Shown: positions 4,795 through 18,755 of the stretch, in pieces
Layout: each line of letters begins with the position of its first letter
Position numbering within the stretch: position 1 is the first letter of the stretch
Source: Candidatus Acidiferrum sp.
GTDB taxonomy: Archaea > Thermoproteota > Bathyarchaeia > 40CM-2-53-6
Direction: 5' to 3'
NCBI GenBank assembly: GCA_035638535.1
Contig: DASQZS010000167.1
Span: 1-24,343 of the forward strand
DNA: 24,343 nt
Notes under the pieces: model-generated
Database searches by the model: none
Told to the model about the DNA's origin: nothing
What the model saw: only the letters and a program-made list of their open reading frames with translations
Made by a program: the position numbers and the translations under genes

Positions 4795-7134
4795 GTGTGC
4801 TCACACTTTCACCTTGGACTCGTACCTTTTCGCTTCTCTCTCCATGTTGTAAATGATTGCGACTGGGTATGTGCTGTGTTGCTATTGAGGCATCTAGGGT
4901 GGATTATCGATCTCTATCCAAAAGCAGGCTCAATGATAATTTGGCTAAAGAAAACAGATGGTAGCTGCGTCAAGCTCACCGATCAATGGAATCCGCAATT
5001 TTACATAGCCGGTGAACCTAGCAATCTTTCCAATCTGACCTCCCAACCTTTCATGTACCGTTGGAAGTTCGTGAAGAAATTTGAAAAAGCGGGCGATCAA
5101 TTCCGATGTAAAGTTCTTGAGGTCACTGCTGCCAGTGAACGGGAAACCCTAGGATCAGCAAGAAGAATTCAGCGGTATGGAAATTTTTCCAAATTTCGAC
5201 TATACAATGTTGACATCCCATCCACGCAGATGTATCTCTACCAGAAAGACCTGTTTCCCTTCGGACTGGTTGAAGCAGAAGAAACGGGAAATGACGTACG
5301 ATGGACACTGAGAGATTCCCGGGAATCAACTGACTACGAGCTGCCACCGTTACGAAGAATTGAATTCAAAGTCACAACCAACATCTCCGGTAGAATTCGA
5401 AGCTTTGAAGATGGATTACATTCGGTAACCATTCGTGATGGAAACGAAATTCTCAGAATAGATTCTGGTGATGAAACAGAAAAACTCCTTAAACTTGTCA
5501 AGGTTTTTCGTGAAATTAATCCGGACATCATTCTTACCGAAGACGGAGATTCATTCATCTTTCCATATCTCGCCAGACGCGCAGACCTCAACGGAATCCT
5601 AGATGGTCTGATTCTTGGACGTGAGGAAGTCCCATTGAGAATCTACGAATTGCAGGGACACAGCTACTTTTCGTATGGAAAGATACTTTTCAGGCAGACC
5701 GCTGCAAGGCTGTTTGGAAGACTGCATATCGACGGGTCAAACGCATTCATTGGCACAGACTGTGGCCTAGAAGGGTTGTTCGAAGTTGCGAGAACCTGCA
5801 TAATTCCAGTTCAGAGAGCTTCTCGAACTACAATCGGCACGAGCATGACTTCACTACAATTATACCACGCAGTGAAGCAAGACGTGCTGATTCCCTGGAA
5901 CAAGAATGATGCTGAGGACTGGAAAAACGGGAAAGAACTCCTTATCGCTGATCGAGGAGGATTAATCTACGAGCCACAGTTCGGAATCCACGATTCGGTC
6001 GGAGAATTAGATTTCTCTTCGCTCTACCCGACGGTTATGATGAAGAAGAACCTTAGCGGAGAGACGGTTAACTGTGAATGTTGCCCGAACTCAACCAGCA
6101 GAGTCCCCGAGCTAAATTGGAATATCTGCGAAAGATGGGAAGGAATCGTTCCGCTTTCATTGCGTATACTGCTACGGAAGCGTATACTCTACAAGAAACT
6201 TAAGAAAGAAACTATCGACCCGCATATCAGGCTTCGCTATGATCAACGTCAAGCCGCGTTGAAATGGATTCTTGTCTGCTCATTCGGGTATCTGGGGTTC
6301 AAGAACGCGCGATTTGGCAAGATAGACGCACACATCGCCACATGCGCGTATTCAAGAGAGATACTTAGGAAGGCAGTGGCATTTGCCGAGACTAAAGGTT
6401 TCAAACTTGTTCATGGCATTGTTGATTCGATGTGGCTGAAGAAAGCTAACGCTACGAACAGAGAATACGAAGATCTCGCTTGCGAAATAGCAAAGGAACT
6501 TGATTTTCCGATAAGTTTCGAAGGCCAGTACAAGTGGATTGTATTTCTTAACTCACAAATGGATCGACATGTGCCGGTGTTGAATCGATATTATGGAGTC
6601 TCCGAAGACGACAAACTGAAGCTGAGAGGGATTGAACTGAGAAGACATGACACACCACGTATAGTGAACGAGTGTCAGAACCAGATGCTCGAAGTGCTCT
6701 CGAAAGCTAGGAATTCTACGGAGTTTAGGAAATTGATCCCGGAAGTGTTCGATGTCTTGAAACTCTACGCAACCAAGCTCAGGCAGCGAGATGCTACTAT
6801 CGAAGACCTGGTAATCTCAAAGAATCTCAGTAAAAATCCGGAGAATTACGAAAAAATAATTCCACAAGCAGTAGCAGCGAGGCATCTAGTCAGAGAAGGT
6901 CAAGAGGTCCAAGCCGGACAGTCAGTATGCTACGTGTTAACTCGAAGGAAGTCGAGGACGCTAAATAACCGAGCCCTTCCACTAGAACTTGCCAACAAGG
7001 GCGAGTATGACACTGAGCAATACGTCGACCTACTACGCTCATCGGCAACGAACCTGCTACTACCACTGGGATACGACCTTAAACAGATAAAACAGCTAGA
7101 CCAGTCTCAAAGCTCGGCCATTCAATATACATAA
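4795..7134 (+). CDS. polB2: Archaeal family-B DNA polymerase, PolB2 (Dpo2) group
   Basis: DFSSLYP (region II), RQAALKWILVCSFGYLG (region III), HGIVDS replacing YGDTDS (region I), CECC insert, degenerate exonuclease motifs and KLRGIELRRHD. True start probably GTG 4876 or TTG 4885, just before GWIIDLYP. Confidence 0.92.
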   Translation: MCSHFHLGLVPFRFSLHVVNDCDWVCAVLLLRHLGWIIDLYPKAGSMIIWLKKTDGSCVKLTDQWNPQFYIAGEPSNLSNLTSQPFMYRWKFVKKFEKAGDQFRCKVLEVTAASERETLGSARRIQRYGNFSKFRLYNVDIPSTQMYLYQKDLFPFGLVEAEETGNDVRWTLRDSRESTDYELPPLRRIEFKVTTNISGRIRSFEDGLHSVTIRDGNEILRIDSGDETEKLLKLVKVFREINPDIILTEDGDSFIFPYLARRADLNGILDGLILGREEVPLRIYELQGHSYFSYGKILFRQTAARLFGRLHIDGSNAFIGTDCGLEGLFEVARTCIIPVQRASRTTIGTSMTSLQLYHAVKQDVLIPWNKNDAEDWKNGKELLIADRGGLIYEPQFGIHDSVGELDFSSLYPTVMMKKNLSGETVNCECCPNSTSRVPELNWNICERWEGIVPLSLRILLRKRILYKKLKKETIDPHIRLRYDQRQAALKWILVCSFGYLGFKNARFGKIDAHIATCAYSREILRKAVAFAETKGFKLVHGIVDSMWLKKANATNREYEDLACEIAKELDFPISFEGQYKWIVFLNSQMDRHVPVLNRYYGVSEDDKLKLRGIELRRHDTPRIVNECQNQMLEVLSKARNSTEFRKLIPEVFDVLKLYATKLRQRDATIEDLVISKNLSKNPENYEKIIPQAVAARHLVREGQEVQAGQSVCYVLTRRKSRTLNNRALPLELANKGEYDTEQYVDLLRSSATNLLLPLGYDLKQIKQLDQSQSSAIQYT

Positions 7135-7422: not shown

Positions 7423-8910
7423 GTGGATGATTCATCCAGAACTGCTTTTTACCGCATATGCTCAGCTGGAAACTTGAACTGCGTTACTAAATCGGAGCAT
7501 TTCAGGTTGGAAAGAAGAACATTCCTCAAACTCGCCGTCTTAACGTCAGGGTTGACTGCTGCTGGTTACCTTGCTGGCGATTTGCTGCAGGTTACGGATG
7601 CTTCGGTCCAATCATTAACGGGTTCGCTCGATGCCGATCCGAGTGTTCCCATGAATCCAGATTGGCAGATTCCGCATTTGCTCAGGCGTGCGGGGTTTGG
7701 CGGATCACCTGATGAGATTTCATCATACCAGAATCTTGGATTAAGCGGTGCGATAGATCGGTTAGTCAACTATCAGAGTATAGATGAGAGCGCTCTTCCC
7801 GCCGAACCAAACATAACGATGGAGCGTACGAAGAAACCTTCTCCATTGGATATTCAAAAGTTAGTGTGGTGGTGGGTTGATCGCATGGTCAACACGTCAA
7901 GGCCGTTGGAGGAGAAATTGACATTATTTTGGCACAATCACTTCGCGACTGCAATATACAAAGTTCGAAGTCCGTACCTCATGTTCAAACAGAACCAGCT
8001 TCTCCGTACATATGCAACGGGTAACTTCAGCGATTTGCTGATGGGAATAACCAAAGATCCGGCTATGTTGATCTGGCTCGACGGTGCGAAAAATCGTGCT
8101 GCTGCGCCCAATGAGAACTATGGACGCGAAGTGATGGAGGTATTCACTATCGGTGTCGGAAACTATACCGAGGACGATGTTAAGTCTGCTGCCAGAGCGT
8201 TCACAGGATATCAGATCAACAAGTCAGGTGAATCTTTCTTCAACCCAAAGGTTCACGACGATGGACAGAAGACCTTCCTTGGCCAAACAGGAAACTTCGG
8301 TCCGGAAGACATAGTTAACATACTCGCTAACCATCCGGCAACCGCCAAAAGAATTACGAGCGAACTATTCTCCTACTTATCATACAGCAATCCTAGCAGC
8401 GAGACCGTGAACAATTTGGCAAACGTCTTCACGGGCTCCAACGGGAATATCGGCGCGGTCGTTGAGGTGATACTGAAATCGGATGAATTCATGTCGAACC
8501 GTGCCCACCTGAGCCTTGTAAAGAGCCCAGTGGACTATGTCGTGACAGCGATGCGATCGCTTGGTGCAACCGTGAAGCCCAGAGCGGTGATTGGGGCATT
8601 GAAGAACATGGGACAACTCCCGTTTAATCCACCGAGCGTTTTCGGTTGGCCTGAAGGCATCGGGTGGATTAATACTTCAACTATTCTTGATCGATACAAT
8701 TTTCCGCTCGCCATAGACCCTTCTTCAGTTCAGGAGGTTCAAGACGGAGCCTCAGCCAGCGACGTTGCTCAAGTCCTATTTCCAGAAAAACTTCCATCAG
8801 AAGTTTTACAAGTCATTCAGAATTCGTCGAACTCATTGGACACTCCTACTGCTCAGTTACGAAACACGATTCGTCTCACAATGTCAACTCCGTACTATAA
8901 TCTGAATTGA
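7423..8910 (+). CDS. DUF1800 family protein with twin-arginine signal peptide
   Basis: HLLRRAGFG, RPLEEKLTLFWHNHFAT, ENYGREVMEVFTIG and YTEDDV signatures; RRTFLK + hydrophobic h-region. Likely start TTG 7507. Confidence 0.92.
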   Translation: MDDSSRTAFYRICSAGNLNCVTKSEHFRLERRTFLKLAVLTSGLTAAGYLAGDLLQVTDASVQSLTGSLDADPSVPMNPDWQIPHLLRRAGFGGSPDEISSYQNLGLSGAIDRLVNYQSIDESALPAEPNITMERTKKPSPLDIQKLVWWWVDRMVNTSRPLEEKLTLFWHNHFATAIYKVRSPYLMFKQNQLLRTYATGNFSDLLMGITKDPAMLIWLDGAKNRAAAPNENYGREVMEVFTIGVGNYTEDDVKSAARAFTGYQINKSGESFFNPKVHDDGQKTFLGQTGNFGPEDIVNILANHPATAKRITSELFSYLSYSNPSSETVNNLANVFTGSNGNIGAVVEVILKSDEFMSNRAHLSLVKSPVDYVVTAMRSLGATVKPRAVIGALKNMGQLPFNPPSVFGWPEGIGWINTSTILDRYNFPLAIDPSSVQEVQDGASASDVAQVLFPEKLPSEVLQVIQNSSNSLDTPTAQLRNTIRLTMSTPYYNLN

Positions 8911-8923
8911 AAGTGACTATGAT

Positions 8924-10180
8924 ATGCCTTTGAATATAGCTCGGCGCGCTTTTCTGCAACAAGTTGCAAAGTCTGTAGGAAAAGTTCCATCACTGAACCC
9001 GCTTAGTTTCGGTCCGAAAATAGTAGACTTAACCACTCTAATGACTCCGGAGCAGACCGAAGACCTGAAAAATCGAACCCTTGTTGTCATTCAGTTAAGC
9101 GGCGGAAATGATGGCATAAACACGGTTATCCCTTACTCGCAACAAACCTACTACGATTCTCGACCCTCCCTTGCGCTTCCAAAAGATCAAGTTCTCCCAT
9201 TGGATAGCAATGTGGCACTGCACCCTAACATGACTGAACTACAGAACTTATACAACAACAATCACGTCGCAATAGTGCAAGGCGTCGGTTATCCAAATCC
9301 GAATCGTTCACATTACGAATCCATGTCTATCTGGCAGACTGCATCGATCGAATCAGGAAGCCCCGGTTGGATTGGAAGATATCTGGATAACGCTAAGAAG
9401 AATGATAGCAGCATTAATGCTGTTGAAATCGACTCACTCTTATCGCCTGCAGTTGTTGGTCAACAGCAAAGCGCGCTAGCAATTGACAGCCTAGATTCCT
9501 TCAAAATCAGACCTCTGAACAGCCTGAGTTCGCAGGCACAAACCGAGAACGTGATTAATGCGTTAGATTCAATTCAATGCACATCGTGTCAAGAATACAA
9601 TAATTTAGTAAACGCAATGATGGAAGCAGGCTTGGATTCGCTGACTGCTTCAGACATAGTACAGCAAGCCGCATCTAACTATCAATCATCCGTAGCTTAT
9701 CCGAATAATGATTTCGCGAATAGGTTGAAATTGGCTGCACAAATAGTTTCGTCAAGTCTGAGCCCACAAATTGTGTACTTACAGATCGGTGGGTTCGATA
9801 CACATGCAAGTCAGAAGGATACACAAGCAACTCTGCTCAAAACTGTCAGCGAAGGGATCTCAGCCTTCTACAAGGACATGGATTCGAAAGATAGAGCAAA
9901 CGATACGATGATCATGACTTTCTCAGAATTTGGAAGAAGAGTAAAAGAAAATGGAAGCCAAGGTACTGATCATGGCACAGCTGAACCTATGTTCCTTATT
10001 GGAGGAAGAGTAAGCGGAGGCTTATATGGATCCTATCCGAGCCTTACGGATCTTGATAGTGGCGACCTGAAATTTAACGTCGATTTCAGACAGGTGTACG
10101 CGACTGTCCTACAAGACTGGTTGGGTGCTGATCCTTCTCAAGTTCTGTACTCTCAATTCCAGAAGTTGAACATGATTTAA
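8924..10180 (+). CDS. DUF1501 family protein (alkaline phosphatase/sulfatase-like fold)
   Basis: LVVIQLSGGNDGINTVIP, RSHYES, GGFDTHASQ, FSEFGRR and GTDHGTA signatures; begins 13 nt after DUF1800, its usual operon partner. Confidence 0.93.
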   Translation: MPLNIARRAFLQQVAKSVGKVPSLNPLSFGPKIVDLTTLMTPEQTEDLKNRTLVVIQLSGGNDGINTVIPYSQQTYYDSRPSLALPKDQVLPLDSNVALHPNMTELQNLYNNNHVAIVQGVGYPNPNRSHYESMSIWQTASIESGSPGWIGRYLDNAKKNDSSINAVEIDSLLSPAVVGQQQSALAIDSLDSFKIRPLNSLSSQAQTENVINALDSIQCTSCQEYNNLVNAMMEAGLDSLTASDIVQQAASNYQSSVAYPNNDFANRLKLAAQIVSSSLSPQIVYLQIGGFDTHASQKDTQATLLKTVSEGISAFYKDMDSKDRANDTMIMTFSEFGRRVKENGSQGTDHGTAEPMFLIGGRVSGGLYGSYPSLTDLDSGDLKFNVDFRQVYATVLQDWLGADPSQVLYSQFQKLNMI

Positions 10181-11299: not shown

Positions 11300-11569
11300 C
11301 TAGAGTTGGTTCTCAAGAGCTGTAAAGGTACGACGTTCCTGATGTGTTGCTGTTCTGAACAGATCTTCCAACGATAATTCGTGGCTACACTTTGAACATG
11401 TTTTCAGCTTCGACAAGATTTGAAGCTTATCTGGAGAAATTCTTACGTTCTCCTCAACATGAAGAAGCGTCGTGTTGCATTTCGGACAGATAAAATTGAT
11501 ATCGGATGTTCTTGTCATAATCAGTTTGTCCCTCGCGAATTTTGAGTTCGTTACAAAAATCTGGGGCAT
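11300..11569 (-). CDS. Small C4 zinc-finger protein
   Basis: CPKC...CSKC pairs; starts 4 nt after the stop of the upstream membrane protein gene, suggesting co-transcription. Confidence 0.7.
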   Translation of the reverse strand: MPQIFVTNSKFARDKLIMTRTSDINFICPKCNTTLLHVEENVRISPDKLQILSKLKTCSKCSHELSLEDLFRTATHQERRTFTALENQL

Positions 11570-11573
11570 GGAT

Positions 11574-11888
11574 CTAGAGTTTGAGAAGCATTGCGGCGAG
11601 AGCGACGCCGGAAAGTAAGCTGAGGTAGATTGCTCCTCGAATCTTCTCTTCCTTTATGGAACTGAGAATTGTCACGTGTTGAGTCTTAACGATCCTTCGG
11701 GTTAGATGGGTAGCGATGAAGCCCACTCCGCCACCGATCACGAACACTATGATCGAGTATACTTCTGGTGGAAGGTTTTGGATGAATACGGGCATCACTT
11801 TGAGTGAGATTGTGGTTTCAACGCCAAGCGCAAGCATCGTTACGATGTGTGGTTTGGCGTGGTCCAGAAATTCGGTGAGTTCGATCAT
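11574..11888 (-). CDS. Small membrane protein of unknown function (about 3 TM)
   Basis: 104 aa with three hydrophobic segments and a basic loop; TATA-like element about 33 nt upstream. Confidence 0.7.
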   Translation of the reverse strand: MIELTEFLDHAKPHIVTMLALGVETTISLKVMPVFIQNLPPEVYSIIVFVIGGGVGFIATHLTRRIVKTQHVTILSSIKEEKIRGAIYLSLLSGVALAAMLLKL

Positions 11889-11898
11889 TTCATATCAC

Positions 11899-11918
11899 TG
11901 TCGATACGTGTATCGACA
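11899..11918. promoter_or_regulatory. Operator-like palindrome TGTCGATAC-GT-GTATCGACA
   Basis: Perfect 9-bp inverted repeat with 2-nt spacer, between the leftward TATA and the ATG at 11888. Confidence 0.8.
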
Positions 11919-11919
11919 C

Positions 11920-11927
11920 TATTATAC
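11920..11927 (-). promoter_or_regulatory. Putative TATA box of the leftward operon (minus strand TATAATA)
   Basis: Position about 33 nt upstream of ATG 11888 fits an archaeal short-leader promoter. Confidence 0.5.
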
Positions 11928-11953
11928 AGTCGCCTATTTATGAGTTCCGAATC

Positions 11954-11983
11954 TGTCGATACACTTTTAAACACCTATCGACA
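11954..11983. promoter_or_regulatory. Second operator TGTCGATA-N14-TATCGACA flanking a TATA box (TTTTAAA, 11965-11971)
   Basis: Same half-site as at 11899-11918; TATA lies about 30 nt upstream of ATG 12002, consistent with a leaderless transcript. Confidence 0.75.
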
Positions 11984-12001
11984 ATCGATATACGGTGCGC
12001 A

Positions 12002-12115
12002 ATGAATAGCGACGTCCAGATCTGGCTAAAATCAAGAATGACCGAGATCGAAGCTCGCCTAACAGAACTGAAACGTCGCTTGCGCCAGGAAGACACACAA
12101 AATGAGCAACAATGA
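12002..12115 (+). CDS. 37-aa coiled-coil microprotein paralogous to the N-terminus of the downstream wHTH regulator (not in ORF track)
   Basis: MNSDVQIWLKSRMTEIEARLTELKRRLRQEDTQNEQQ*; 11 identities in 26 aa to NEDLKKWLESRFQKIDTRLNELEKSI. Overlaps the regulator start by 14 nt; TATA at leaderless spacing. Confidence 0.75.
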   Translation: MNSDVQIWLKSRMTEIEARLTELKRRLRQEDTQNEQQ

Positions 12116-12458
12116 AGACTTGAAAAAATGGCTTGAATCAAGATTCCAAAAAATAGACACACGCCTAAATGAACTCGAAAAATCGATCTCTGAAAACAAG
12201 CAAACGAAAATCCGAATAGCCTGGTACAGAACCCTGATCGGTATGACAGACCTAGGTGGTAAAACTGGAACAGAACAACTGGCCGATCATCTCGGCATCA
12301 GTCGCAGCGTCATAAGCGAATACTTGAACAGAATGGAAGAGGAAGGCCTCGTCAAACGAGACTTCAACGAAGACCCCGAACGGAAATCACGATTCGTCTG
12401 GAACATCGACTGGAACGCACTACCACCAGAAATAGCATCTAGGCTGAAGAAAAAATAG
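12102..12458 (+). CDS. Winged helix-turn-helix transcriptional regulator with N-terminal coiled coil (MarR/ArsR/TrmB-like)
   Basis: TEQLADHLGISRSVISEYLNRMEEEGLVKR HTH followed by wing RFVWNI; heptad N-terminus. Confidence 0.88.
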   Translation: MSNNEDLKKWLESRFQKIDTRLNELEKSISENKQTKIRIAWYRTLIGMTDLGGKTGTEQLADHLGISRSVISEYLNRMEEEGLVKRDFNEDPERKSRFVWNIDWNALPPEIASRLKKK

Positions 12459-12521
12459 CTGGATTACGACAGTCGTCCTACAGTTTAAGAACACAAAGCT
12501 CACAATCACATCGACGATCTT

Positions 12522-13493
12522 TTGCCGCCTAAGAACACTCTTCTAACCTGCCCTCAATGCGGAAAGCTCGCGGCCCGGGGGCAAAAATTCTGCGGCAAAT
12601 GTAACCAGCCCATCACCTCATGTCAAGCCTGCACCGCAATCAACCTCGTATCATCAAATTTCTGTCACAACTGCGGAAGGTCCATTCGTACCACACCACT
12701 TGCTAAAGAAAGGCAAGAACCACCAAAACCTTCCCTCACCCCTCCACAAGAAATGGCGGTTACAGCTTCCCCCACGCGCATGCAACCTGGCAGACTTCCG
12801 AGCGAACAACCAAAAATTGAACGATTACAACTCTGTCTCTCATGCAAGAAACCCATCGGATCTTCAGAAAAATTCTGTCGGTTCTGTGGAACACCGCAGA
12901 AGATCATCACTGAGCCCGCTCAAACGATACTCGATCCTCATACATTGAAAATCAGCCTTCTAATGTTAAGTAGAGTCACCGAAGCGAAAGAACACTCAGA
13001 ATATTCAACCATCGATCAATTGACGACAACGATTGGAGAAGTTGCATTGGGCAAAAACAAACCTCATGACGCGCAGGAATTGACGTTCTCCGACCAACTC
13101 AGATTGCTGACTCTAGTCTTCGAGTATACACGTGATAAAGTGAACTACAAGGGCGAGGTTTTTGGTGAGTATGTGCGATGGCCCTGGGAGACCATCAAAA
13201 CTGGCGGAGATTGCGACTGCAAGGTAGTACTTCTTGCGACTATGCTTTCCAGCTTAGCCTTTAGGAGAATGCATTTCCTCGTCCTACCAGGCGGAACTTA
13301 TTTGGACTCTATCGGACAAGGAGAGAAAAGGATACAAGGCCACGCTCTGCTTGAAGTTGAACTTGTCGACGGATCGCGAATGGTGCCTGTACGATTGGAT
13401 CCATCATGCATGGATTGTGACGTCGACGATATCGCGGATAGCATCAAACCGTTTCTTCAAAACTTCTACAGAGTCCCAATCATTCTACCGTGA
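12522..13493 (+). CDS. Triple zinc-ribbon protein fused to a transglutaminase-like (Cys-His-Asp) domain
   Basis: Three CxxC-x-FCxxC ribbons, a Pro-rich linker, then WETIKTGGDCDCK (GDC nucleophile), GHALLEV and RLDPS. TTG start. Confidence 0.85.
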   Translation: MPPKNTLLTCPQCGKLAARGQKFCGKCNQPITSCQACTAINLVSSNFCHNCGRSIRTTPLAKERQEPPKPSLTPPQEMAVTASPTRMQPGRLPSEQPKIERLQLCLSCKKPIGSSEKFCRFCGTPQKIITEPAQTILDPHTLKISLLMLSRVTEAKEHSEYSTIDQLTTTIGEVALGKNKPHDAQELTFSDQLRLLTLVFEYTRDKVNYKGEVFGEYVRWPWETIKTGGDCDCKVVLLATMLSSLAFRRMHFLVLPGGTYLDSIGQGEKRIQGHALLEVELVDGSRMVPVRLDPSCMDCDVDDIADSIKPFLQNFYRVPIILP

Positions 13494-14767: not shown

Positions 14768-15124
14768 TTGCCGAAAGAGAAACAGCGAGAACCATTAGAG
14801 ATAATGATGGACATGAGCGAGTTTCTATACAGCTTCGGCCCACAGAAGATTACCAAAATAGAGCGAGCATGCAACCTTCGAGACGACCTTTGTAAACAGT
14901 ACCTGAGCGAGCTGAGCGAACGTCAGTTCATTAAGAAAAACGCAAGTGACGAGTACGAGATTATGCAAAGAGGCATCGACTTCCTAAGGGACACTATTGA
15001 TTTGTATCGCAAGCACTTCCCAGAACGACGCAAGGTAATTGAAGAGGGCAGATTCTGGAGACCCATTCGCCGAATAACAGGCTCTAACGATGAGGGGCCG
15101 TCTCGTAACCAGAATACCACGTGA
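14768..15124 (+). CDS. Archaeal winged-helix DNA-binding protein (HTH_45-like)
   Basis: LEIMMDM...KITKIERACNL....KQYLSEL.ERQFIKK...YEIMQRGIDFL matches the pattern of this small archaeal regulator family. TTG start. Confidence 0.78.
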   Translation: MPKEKQREPLEIMMDMSEFLYSFGPQKITKIERACNLRDDLCKQYLSELSERQFIKKNASDEYEIMQRGIDFLRDTIDLYRKHFPERRKVIEEGRFWRPIRRITGSNDEGPSRNQNTT

Positions 15125-18305: not shown

Positions 18306-18755
18306 TTATGGTTGATTTTCTCGGAGCCGTGTTTCGATGTATTCAGCCACTTTCTCTTCGCTGTAATTCTTCTCTTCCCGTTGTTTTCTGAGTTGTTCTC
18401 TGATCGAGTTTATGAGTACGTCGATTTTTACGGGTTTGGTTATGTAATCGTTCGCGCCCTTCTTAACAGCTGCGATGGCATTTTGCACTTCTGGAAATCC
18501 TGTTACGATGATCTTTCGCATCTTGGGCGTGGTTTCCTCTAGTTCAGAGAGGAGCTGTGTGCCTTCCATGTCTGGTAGGTGGATGTCGATAATTGCTAGA
18601 TTGTATACATTTGTCTTGGATTTCTCTATGGCTTCTTTTCCGTTACTCGCGGTGTCTGTTACATAGGATTCATCATTAAGTGCAGTTGTGATGACTTTGC
18701 GTATTCCTTCATCATCGTCTATGACTAGTATCCGGGCTTTGACATTTTTACTCAA
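18306..18755 (-). CDS. Stand-alone response regulator receiver protein
   Basis: ILVIDDD, IIDIHLPDMEG (phospho-Asp), IVTG and DYITKP; overlaps the kinase stop by 8 nt. Confidence 0.95.
   Translation of the reverse strand: MSKNVKARILVIDDDEGIRKVITTALNDESYVTDTASNGKEAIEKSKTNVYNLAIIDIHLPDMEGTQLLSELEETTPKMRKIIVTGFPEVQNAIAAVKKGANDYITKPVKIDVLINSIREQLRKQREEKNYSEEKVAEYIETRLRENQP

Follow-up and report, generated by a model that had tools for sequence, protein, structure and literature searches.

Bathyarchaeia are abundant, uncultured archaea of soil and sediment. The window, i. e. the whole stretch of 24,343 nucleotides analysed here, comes from a 2.26-Mb Bathyarchaeia MAG (363 contigs, 47% GC, 89% complete) of an uncultured peat archaeon whose relatives are labelled Bathyarchaeota or Bathyarchaeia. 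The subject of this study is an intergenic region of 95 bp between divergent genes: On the leftward side lies the gene of the membrane-type protein TM104, which is probably co-transcribed with the gene of a small zinc-ribbon protein behind it. On the rightward side, a short open reading frame (sORF) precedes the gene of a small winged helix-turn-helix (wHTH) protein, the presumed regulator, and then comes the gene of a larger multi-zinc-ribbon protein that is possibly part of the regulator's transcript in this genome (Table 1). This last gene has the same direction as the regulator gene in the window and in its nearest relative (L002), and it is convergent in most other loci. Orthologous multi-zinc-ribbon proteins (L003 and L004) carry an insert of ~45 aa with a weak, sub-threshold MarR_2-like match, where the copy in the window has a Pro-rich linker instead. 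A second small wHTH protein (HTH_45, 118 aa), which is unrelated in sequence to the regulator, is encoded at 14768-15124, 2.3 kb downstream. Upstream of the locus, there are a family B DNA polymerase gene and a DUF1800-DUF1501 gene pair (4795-7134 and 7423-10180). The neighbours are chromosomal; besides the DNA polymerase, they include a member of the arginase family, an aminotransferase and a PAS histidine kinase. A reading of the locus as a mobile element or a replication origin was dropped, since these neighbours are ordinary and no integrase or orc1/cdc6 was present among the genes scanned.

Table 1. Features of the divergent locus and their positions in the window
Feature	Position	Strand	Remarks
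Left operator (candidate), 9+2+9 palindrome	11899..11918	.	spans the predicted leftward start; in 73/85 orthologous regions
AT-rich word TATTATACA	11920..11928	.	only the terminal [G/T]ACA conserved; likelier a degenerate half-site-like element than a TATA box
TATA-like block of the leftward promoter, TTATATG consensus	11935..11942	-	information content 0.8-1.4 at 11936-11942 (85 loci)
GTTTCGAWW block, candidate leftward BRE	11944..11953	.	minus strand CGAAAC; CGGAAC in the window
Right operator (candidate), upstream half-site TGTCGATAC	11954..11962	+	TGACGATAC in most relatives; overlaps the expected rightward BRE position
Rightward TATA box TTTTAAA	11965..11971	+	conserved CAC (11972-11974) next to it; starts 37 nt before the sORF ATG
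Right operator (candidate), downstream inverted half-site CTATCGACA	11975..11983	-	T[A/C]G[A/C]CA at the same position in relatives
Partial ATCGATA word	11984..11990	.	specific to the window's close relatives
37-aa sORF	12002..12115	+	leads the rightward transcript; paralogous to the N-terminal helix of the regulator
118-aa regulator, long N-terminal helix and wHTH	12102..12458	+	presumed binder of the sites (Pfam and AF2)
TM104, 104-aa membrane-type protein	11574..11888	-	leftward target gene; no Pfam family
89-aa zinc-ribbon protein	11300..11569	-	4 nt downstream of TM104
323-aa multi-zinc-ribbon protein	12522..13493	+	syntenic with the regulator

The regulator exceeds the Pfam cut-offs for HTH_5 (31.7 bits, cut-off 22), HTH_24 (30.0 bits, cut-off 21.9) and MarR_2 (29.9 bits, cut-off 27). 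Its AF2 model (pLDDT 88) predicts one long helix (residues 2-50), then a wHTH with a wing (helices 57-64 and 68-80, strands 84-88 and 98-102) and a short C-terminal helix. The closest solved folds identified by Foldseek are homodimeric proteins of the MarR, ArsR and AbfR2/Lrs14-like types, and they match the wHTH core only (TM ~0.5). A full-length match to MarR was not obtained: with 118 aa and a single long helix, the regulator reaches TM-scores of 0.4-0.54, with ~77 core residues at low rmsd, and it has neither the N-/C-terminal helix dimerisation domain nor the length of ~140-150 aa of the MarR family proper. By profile and by predicted fold, we assign it to the wHTH proteins of the MarR/ArsR superfamily. 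The regulator family is small and confined to Bathyarchaeia (~70 clusters, 58-98% identity), and its recognition helix, SRSVISEYLNRM, does not vary among 30 family members.

The stop codon of the sORF overlaps the start of the regulator gene. The substitutions in the sORF distribute as 221/157/323 over the three codon positions and the frame is uninterrupted in every locus compared, a pattern by which the sORF qualifies as a real coding sequence. Its product and the N-terminal helix of the regulator have an invariant W-L-xx-R-x6-R-xxx-L pattern in common. A complex prediction for the regulator and the 37-aa product gave a score of 0.02, which is uninformative either way. The sORF is absent, frameshifted or degenerate in L003, L004, L005, L007 and L013; in L003 and L007, a ~30-nt leader with a GGAGG-type SD precedes the regulator gene in its place.

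The original prediction described four half-sites on two divergent promoters, and the letters at 11899-11918, 11954-11983 and 11984-11990 are exactly those that it described. The first of these stretches is a perfect 9+2+9 palindrome of 20 bp, TGTCGATAC-GT-GTATCGACA, whose end is separated by 10 nt from the leftward ATG (start codon 11888). The second is an inverted 8-mer pair, TGTCGATA-N14-TATCGACA (11954-11961 and 11976-11983), that encloses the TTTTAAA at 11965-11971, and the third is the ATCGATA word. The exact 8-mer TGTCGATA is present in five copies in the window as compared to 0.92 expected (0 of 100 shuffles reach five), and four of these copies lie within 85 bp (11899-11983). The fifth (18584-18591), which is located within an ORF on the minus strand (18306-18755) and has no partner site, is probably due to chance. 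In the genome as a whole, the 8-mer shows no enrichment (93 copies in 2.26 Mb versus ~75 expected). The locus is the sole place in the MAG with two copies of the 8-mer at a distance of at most 60 bp, and no other site matches the palindrome at 18/18 or the N14 pair at 16/16 positions; thus, the observation holds true, and within its genome the element is restricted to this locus. The next-best matches to the palindrome reach 14-15/18 (at C138, C180, C315 and C91), and all of them are inside long open frames. Judged by the counts in the window and in the genome, the dyad symmetry of the candidate operator far exceeds chance. A genome-wide scan for paired half-sites had been suggested as a way to define a regulon; when we looked for such further sites across the window's own MAG, none was found, an absence that is unproven with a MAG that is 89% complete.

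To study the conservation of the sites, orthologous loci were gathered from related genomes, from contigs encoding diverged family members and from metagenomes. The upstream regions could be anchored for 94 out of 97 loci, the remaining three being truncated, and 85 of these regions are distinct. Conservation at orthologous loci had been set beforehand as the test of the original prediction, and the half-sites do keep fixed positions in the 85 regions while their flanks diverge. The conserved blocks are 11936-42 (consensus TTATATG), 11944-52 (GTTTCGAWW), 11954-64 (TG[T/A]CGATACAY), 11965-74 (TTTTAAACAC) and 11978-84 (T[A/C]G[A/C]CAC). The C at 11982 is invariant (85/85); at 11957-61 and within the TATA box, the anchoring pattern used accounts for part of the invariance. 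The positions between the blocks and past 11984 are essentially random (information content <0.3, 85 loci). With such divergence in the sample, conservation signifies selection, and this is how we read the conservation at these 85 loci. It collapses after 11984, and the ATCGATA word is restricted to the close relatives of the window.

The half-sites of the left palindrome have the consensus T-G-T-c-G-A-t/g-A-C, and in 58 out of the 73 regions that contain it, the palindrome keeps a fixed distance. A PWM was trained on the arms of the left palindrome alone and then scored over 82 loci at a strict threshold. It matches in forward orientation at 11954 in 81 of the 82 loci, with 0.08 matches expected per column, and at 11945 in 26 loci, where it reveals an extra direct half-site (TTTCGATAC) that is degenerate in the window. 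In reverse orientation, it matches at 11975 in 16 loci, and the median score at this position (5.0) corresponds to the 99.9th percentile of the background. By this measure, the four half-sites are conserved in position, three of them being strong and the downstream right one usually weak.

Promoter cores are conserved in any case, and it might be argued that the left palindrome is the sole operator, with the right-hand CGATAC-TTTTAAAC-...GACA being a strong core promoter that happens to resemble a half-site. Indeed, CGATAC is found at the expected place of a BRE, and it resembles the candidate leftward BRE, CGAAAC. However, the identity to the palindrome arm (9/9) includes the TG[T/A] positions, which are outside a BRE and have an information content of 1.8-1.9, and the matrix that was derived from the left arms recognizes 11954 in all loci but one. 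Moreover, the genome has just 21 copies of TGTCGATAC, and few of 633 well-defined genes are preceded by TTTTAAA, so that this is no general promoter form. We consider the core promoter explanation to be quite improbable.

The variation of the arms is also relevant to the idea that the palindrome acts as a nucleic-acid structure, i. e. as a cruciform or as a hairpin in the leftward leader, rather than as a protein site. The inverted repeat is perfect in the window, and L015 changes both arms symmetrically, as would suit such a structure. In contrast, position 4 of the arms would mispair in 43 of the 73 loci, where compensatory change is expected of a hairpin: the pairs at this position are C/C in 27 loci, C/A in 20, C/G in 8 and others in the rest, and the arms vary independently. 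In addition, an Rfam scan of 11700-12200 gave zero matches, and with the conserved TATA box only about half of the palindrome would be transcribed. A structural role is thus hardly conceivable, and the independent variation of the arms is consistent with a site for a dimeric protein that tolerates change at one position.

The original prediction had placed the palindrome just downstream of a leftward TATA box at 11920-11927. The order of the two elements holds true, but the box is likely a different one. The word at 11920-11927 is mutated in relatives that are 93-99% identical, it has an information content of ~1.0-1.2 only at 11926-11927, and in independent TM104 promoters it aligns with TGTCTAATG-type sequence. 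Being unconserved in close relatives and aligned with this other sequence in the independent promoters, it was rejected as the leftward TATA box. We regard the assignment of this putative box to 11935-11942 as settled, because the independent TM104 promoters place their TATA there. Genome-wide, TATA-like hexamers show a weak peak at -45 to -36, and the rightward TATA box falls within this interval; the peak does not separate the two candidate leftward boxes, whereas the comparative data did. A bacterial sigma-70 and terminator scan, irrelevant for this archaeon, was uninformative.

With the TATA box centred at 11938, the leftward start is predicted at ~11911-11913, and the palindrome would then extend from ~-7 to +13. 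The leftward leader carries an SD-like GTGAT (AGGTGA in relatives), and SD motifs have their genome-wide peak at -15 to -11. The rightward TATA box, centred at 11968, predicts a start at ~11994-95, ~8 nt before the ATG of the sORF, and G or A is mildly conserved around this position. The geometry of the sites relative to the core promoter elements fits these TATA-based predictions, the start sites being predicted only. In one peat metatranscriptome study, the leftward gene is covered by RNA contigs as far as 11890, and the contigs for the rightward genes begin at 12003 and 12008. The stretch 11891-12002 is uncovered by any RNA contig, but such a gap proves nothing, and contigs cannot show true 5' ends; with the same proviso, the leftward contig end at 11890 is closer to ~11895, the start expected in the original prediction, than to ~11912. 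A contig from an RNA library of a related strain (~95% identical) spans 12008-12587: it starts in the sORF, includes the regulator gene and extends 65 nt into the multi-zinc-ribbon gene. This contig hints at one transcript in this clade, DNA carry-over being possible.

Six loci with unrelated upstream sequence (L101, L104, L105, L108, L112 and L113) have lost the leftward gene. They have also lost the palindrome and TTATATG (6/6) as well as GTTTCGA (5/6), and all six retain the right module beside the regulator gene. Because it is kept where the leftward promoter is gone, the right module belongs to the regulator gene itself, and this points to autoregulation; the palindrome, TTATATG and GTTTCGA belong to the leftward promoter. 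Among 59 genomes of the family, 13 have the regulator gene, and the right module (with at most one mismatch) is present in 12 of these and in none of the remaining 46; the thirteenth regulator-bearing genome has a TATA variant in the module. The match adjoins the regulator gene in all 12 genomes, and there is one extra match with one mismatch elsewhere. In the genomes of the family, palindromes with 0-1 mismatch are confined to regulator/TM104 loci. Palindromes with two mismatches in genomes that do not encode the regulator (G001, G014, G020, G062 and G072) were dismissed as noise, their rate being about that of a reversed-pattern control. The sites are real, unique in their genome, conserved in position and co-inherited with the regulator and the target genes. 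The profile, the conservation and the predicted position of the sites on core promoter elements argue for the operator array of the adjacent wHTH protein that was originally proposed, but the ATCGATA word would not be a general part of it, as it is clade-specific, and the site at 11975 is strong only in the 16 of 82 loci mentioned above.

The other genes of the cluster have the same phylogenetic profile, and this profile alone does not single out the wHTH protein. The sites might instead be read by the multi-zinc-ribbon protein, by the 89-aa zinc-ribbon protein or by the second wHTH protein encoded downstream; the co-occurrence of the cluster genes and the MarR_2-like segment of the orthologous zinc-ribbon proteins would be compatible with this. 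We judge such a reader to be very improbable, since the multi-zinc-ribbon protein of the window is without the insert although the sites in the window are the most perfect ones. Moreover, the right module stays with the regulator gene even where all upstream sequence has been replaced, and the sites persist while the divergent target gene changes between clades.

In the most diverged clade (L030-L034, with regulators that are ~60% identical), an FtsX/ABC-transporter operon lies on the divergent side. There, the left site reads as GTGTCTA / GTCTAGACAC words, and the TGACGATAC beside the TATA box is kept. TM104 homologues that are 31-60% identical are encoded elsewhere in G016, G012, G015, G019, G002, G003 and G009 (L115-L121). 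These seven are not divergent from the regulator; they lie 1.4-3.8 kb away, upstream of the zinc-ribbon gene, and each of them has its own arrangement of TATA, ~16 nt, 20-bp palindrome, SD and ATG. Because these TM104 homologues carry a palindrome promoter of their own, the regulon would have at least three promoters in those genomes.

Repression of divergent promoters by a wHTH protein that occupies BRE/TATA and the start site follows a standard regulatory logic, and we propose that the regulator probably binds the sites on both back-to-back promoters, resulting in repression of the leftward gene and in autoregulation. The published rule is that repressors of archaea bind at BRE/TATA or over the start site and activators upstream of BRE/TATA (PMC4158304). 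According to our model, each of the two archaeal promoters in the intergenic region would have sites for the 118-aa regulator: (i) At the leftward promoter, a dimer would occupy the palindrome, between the TATA box and the SD and start codon of TM104. As the dimer would cover the predicted start, it would block the recruitment of RNA polymerase and thus cause repression; by analogy to known operators, the left palindrome is at a classic repressor position. (ii) At the rightward promoter, the regulator would bind the strong half-site that overlaps the BRE, and the weaker inverted half-site and/or the TATA box as a pseudo-arm may be bound as well. The resulting competition with TFB and TBP would probably lead to negative autoregulation of the sORF-regulator transcript. 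We favour a negative effect because of the overlap of the upstream half-site with the expected BRE and because the weak inverted element follows the TATA box and precedes the start. Which protein binds, where transcription starts, the sign of the regulation and the stoichiometry are what we infer in this model.

The regulator could, however, have a dual role and repress the leftward gene at the palindrome while activating its own promoter via 11945-11962 by aiding TFB or TBP. The strongest and most conserved right-hand element is on the upstream edge of BRE/TATA, and at or just upstream of the BRE it has a position that activators can use, too (PMC4158304). In addition, one third of the loci have a second direct half-site further upstream, and archaeal activator sites, e. 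g. those of Ptr2, TFB-RF1 and TrmBL1, are typically located upstream of BRE/TATA (PMC4158304). On the other hand, the half-site overlaps the expected BRE and is not clear of it, and the conserved inverted element between the TATA box and the start has a repressor-type position. We therefore regard activation of the regulator's own promoter as unlikely, even if it is a serious candidate, and prefer negative autoregulation.

The two right-hand half-sites are 22 bp apart from centre to centre as compared to 12 bp in the palindrome, and one rigid dimer cannot bind both arrangements alike. The original prediction had compared spacers of 2 and 14 nt and had suggested different binding modes as in a genetic switch. 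This comparison mixed arms of nine and eight nucleotides; like for like, the spacers are 4 versus 14 or 2 versus 12 nt, and the difference is exactly 10 bp. A bistable switch of the lambda type, in which graded occupancy of operators of unequal affinity would set two antagonistic outputs, is a hypothesis here: both promoters have strong and weak sites, only a single DNA-binding regulator is evident, and nothing shows mutual exclusion. From the same letters, a single binding geometry with the TATA box as a weak second arm is an equally good reading: TGTCGATAC-AC-TTTTAAACA is a 14/18 match to the palindrome in which the TATA box fills the place of the second arm at 5/9 positions, and the ACAC after the TATA box is conserved. 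It is tempting to speculate that both promoters have a common 30-bp operator (11899-11928 and 11954-11983, offset by 55 bp) composed of an arm, 2 nt, an inverted arm, 1 nt and another inverted arm. At the autoregulated promoter, the middle arm would be the TATA box, for whose bases the regulator would compete with TBP, and the co-transcribed microprotein, which copies the coiled-coil helix of the regulator, would titrate the latter, giving a self-resetting switch. We consider this rather unlikely, and both information content and PWM give weak support to the third element on the left side; if true, the archaea would have a type of switch that has not been described in them so far.

The model that we prefer, with one regulator on both promoters, has several known counterparts. 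MarR of E. coli and marO are a comparable case of an autoregulator with operators in a divergent intergenic region. In the MarR-family autoregulators, which provide the top Foldseek matches (nearest folds including ST1710 and BldR, both of Sulfolobus, and ZitR), a small homodimer-type wHTH gene is likewise combined with a ~20-bp palindrome that has arms of 9 bp, and the sites are likewise placed over the own promoter and a divergent target gene. In contrast to these proteins, the regulator described here has 118 aa with one continuous predicted helix (2-50) instead of an N/C-terminal helical dimer domain, and it has no evident ligand pocket. Moreover, the promoters are of the archaeal BRE/TATA type, and a microprotein that copies the N-terminal helix precedes the regulator. 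TrmB of P. furiosus is a wHTH protein that has a full palindrome at one and a half at another of its promoters, malE and mdxE, on BRE/TATA, and it represses by keeping the transcription machinery off, as we likewise propose here; its site, TACT-N3-AGTA, is unrelated, however, it has a sugar-binding domain, and there is no family link beyond the wHTH (PMC4158304). The operators of MDR1 (Archaeoglobus fulgidus), Phr (P. furiosus) and TrmBL1/Tgr (at TGM sites) lie downstream of BRE/TATA over the start and block the recruitment of RNA polymerase, and MDR1, Phr and TrmBL1 are cited in the TrmB review as examples of repressor sites (PMC4158304). The left palindrome would have the same geometry with respect to a start that is predicted here, whereas the protein families and the motifs are others. 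Finally, the Lrs14-like proteins of the Sulfolobales (AbfR2, PDB 6cmv) are small archaeal wHTH proteins of similar size, and there is a weak sequence match (E 1.6e-4) in addition to the match in fold. Lrs14 proteins are now seen largely as nucleoid-associated proteins of low specificity (PMC11841832), whereas the regulator family studied here appears to have a precise, locus-restricted motif.

Taken together, the comparative data argue for a genuine, strongly conserved and locus-restricted operator set of an uncharacterised wHTH protein of the Bathyarchaeia, and the kind of system is well known. To our knowledge, no pair of a transcription factor and its operator has been characterised in this group. 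The locus provides a precise candidate for such a pair, a 20-bp palindrome and a protein of 118 aa, together with natural variants from 85 loci. It would comprise two classes of targets, i. e. autoregulation and the gene of a small membrane protein, and the prediction of the start sites is clear. Moreover, the locus supplies the cis-element that bears on the microprotein idea for the adjacent sORF.
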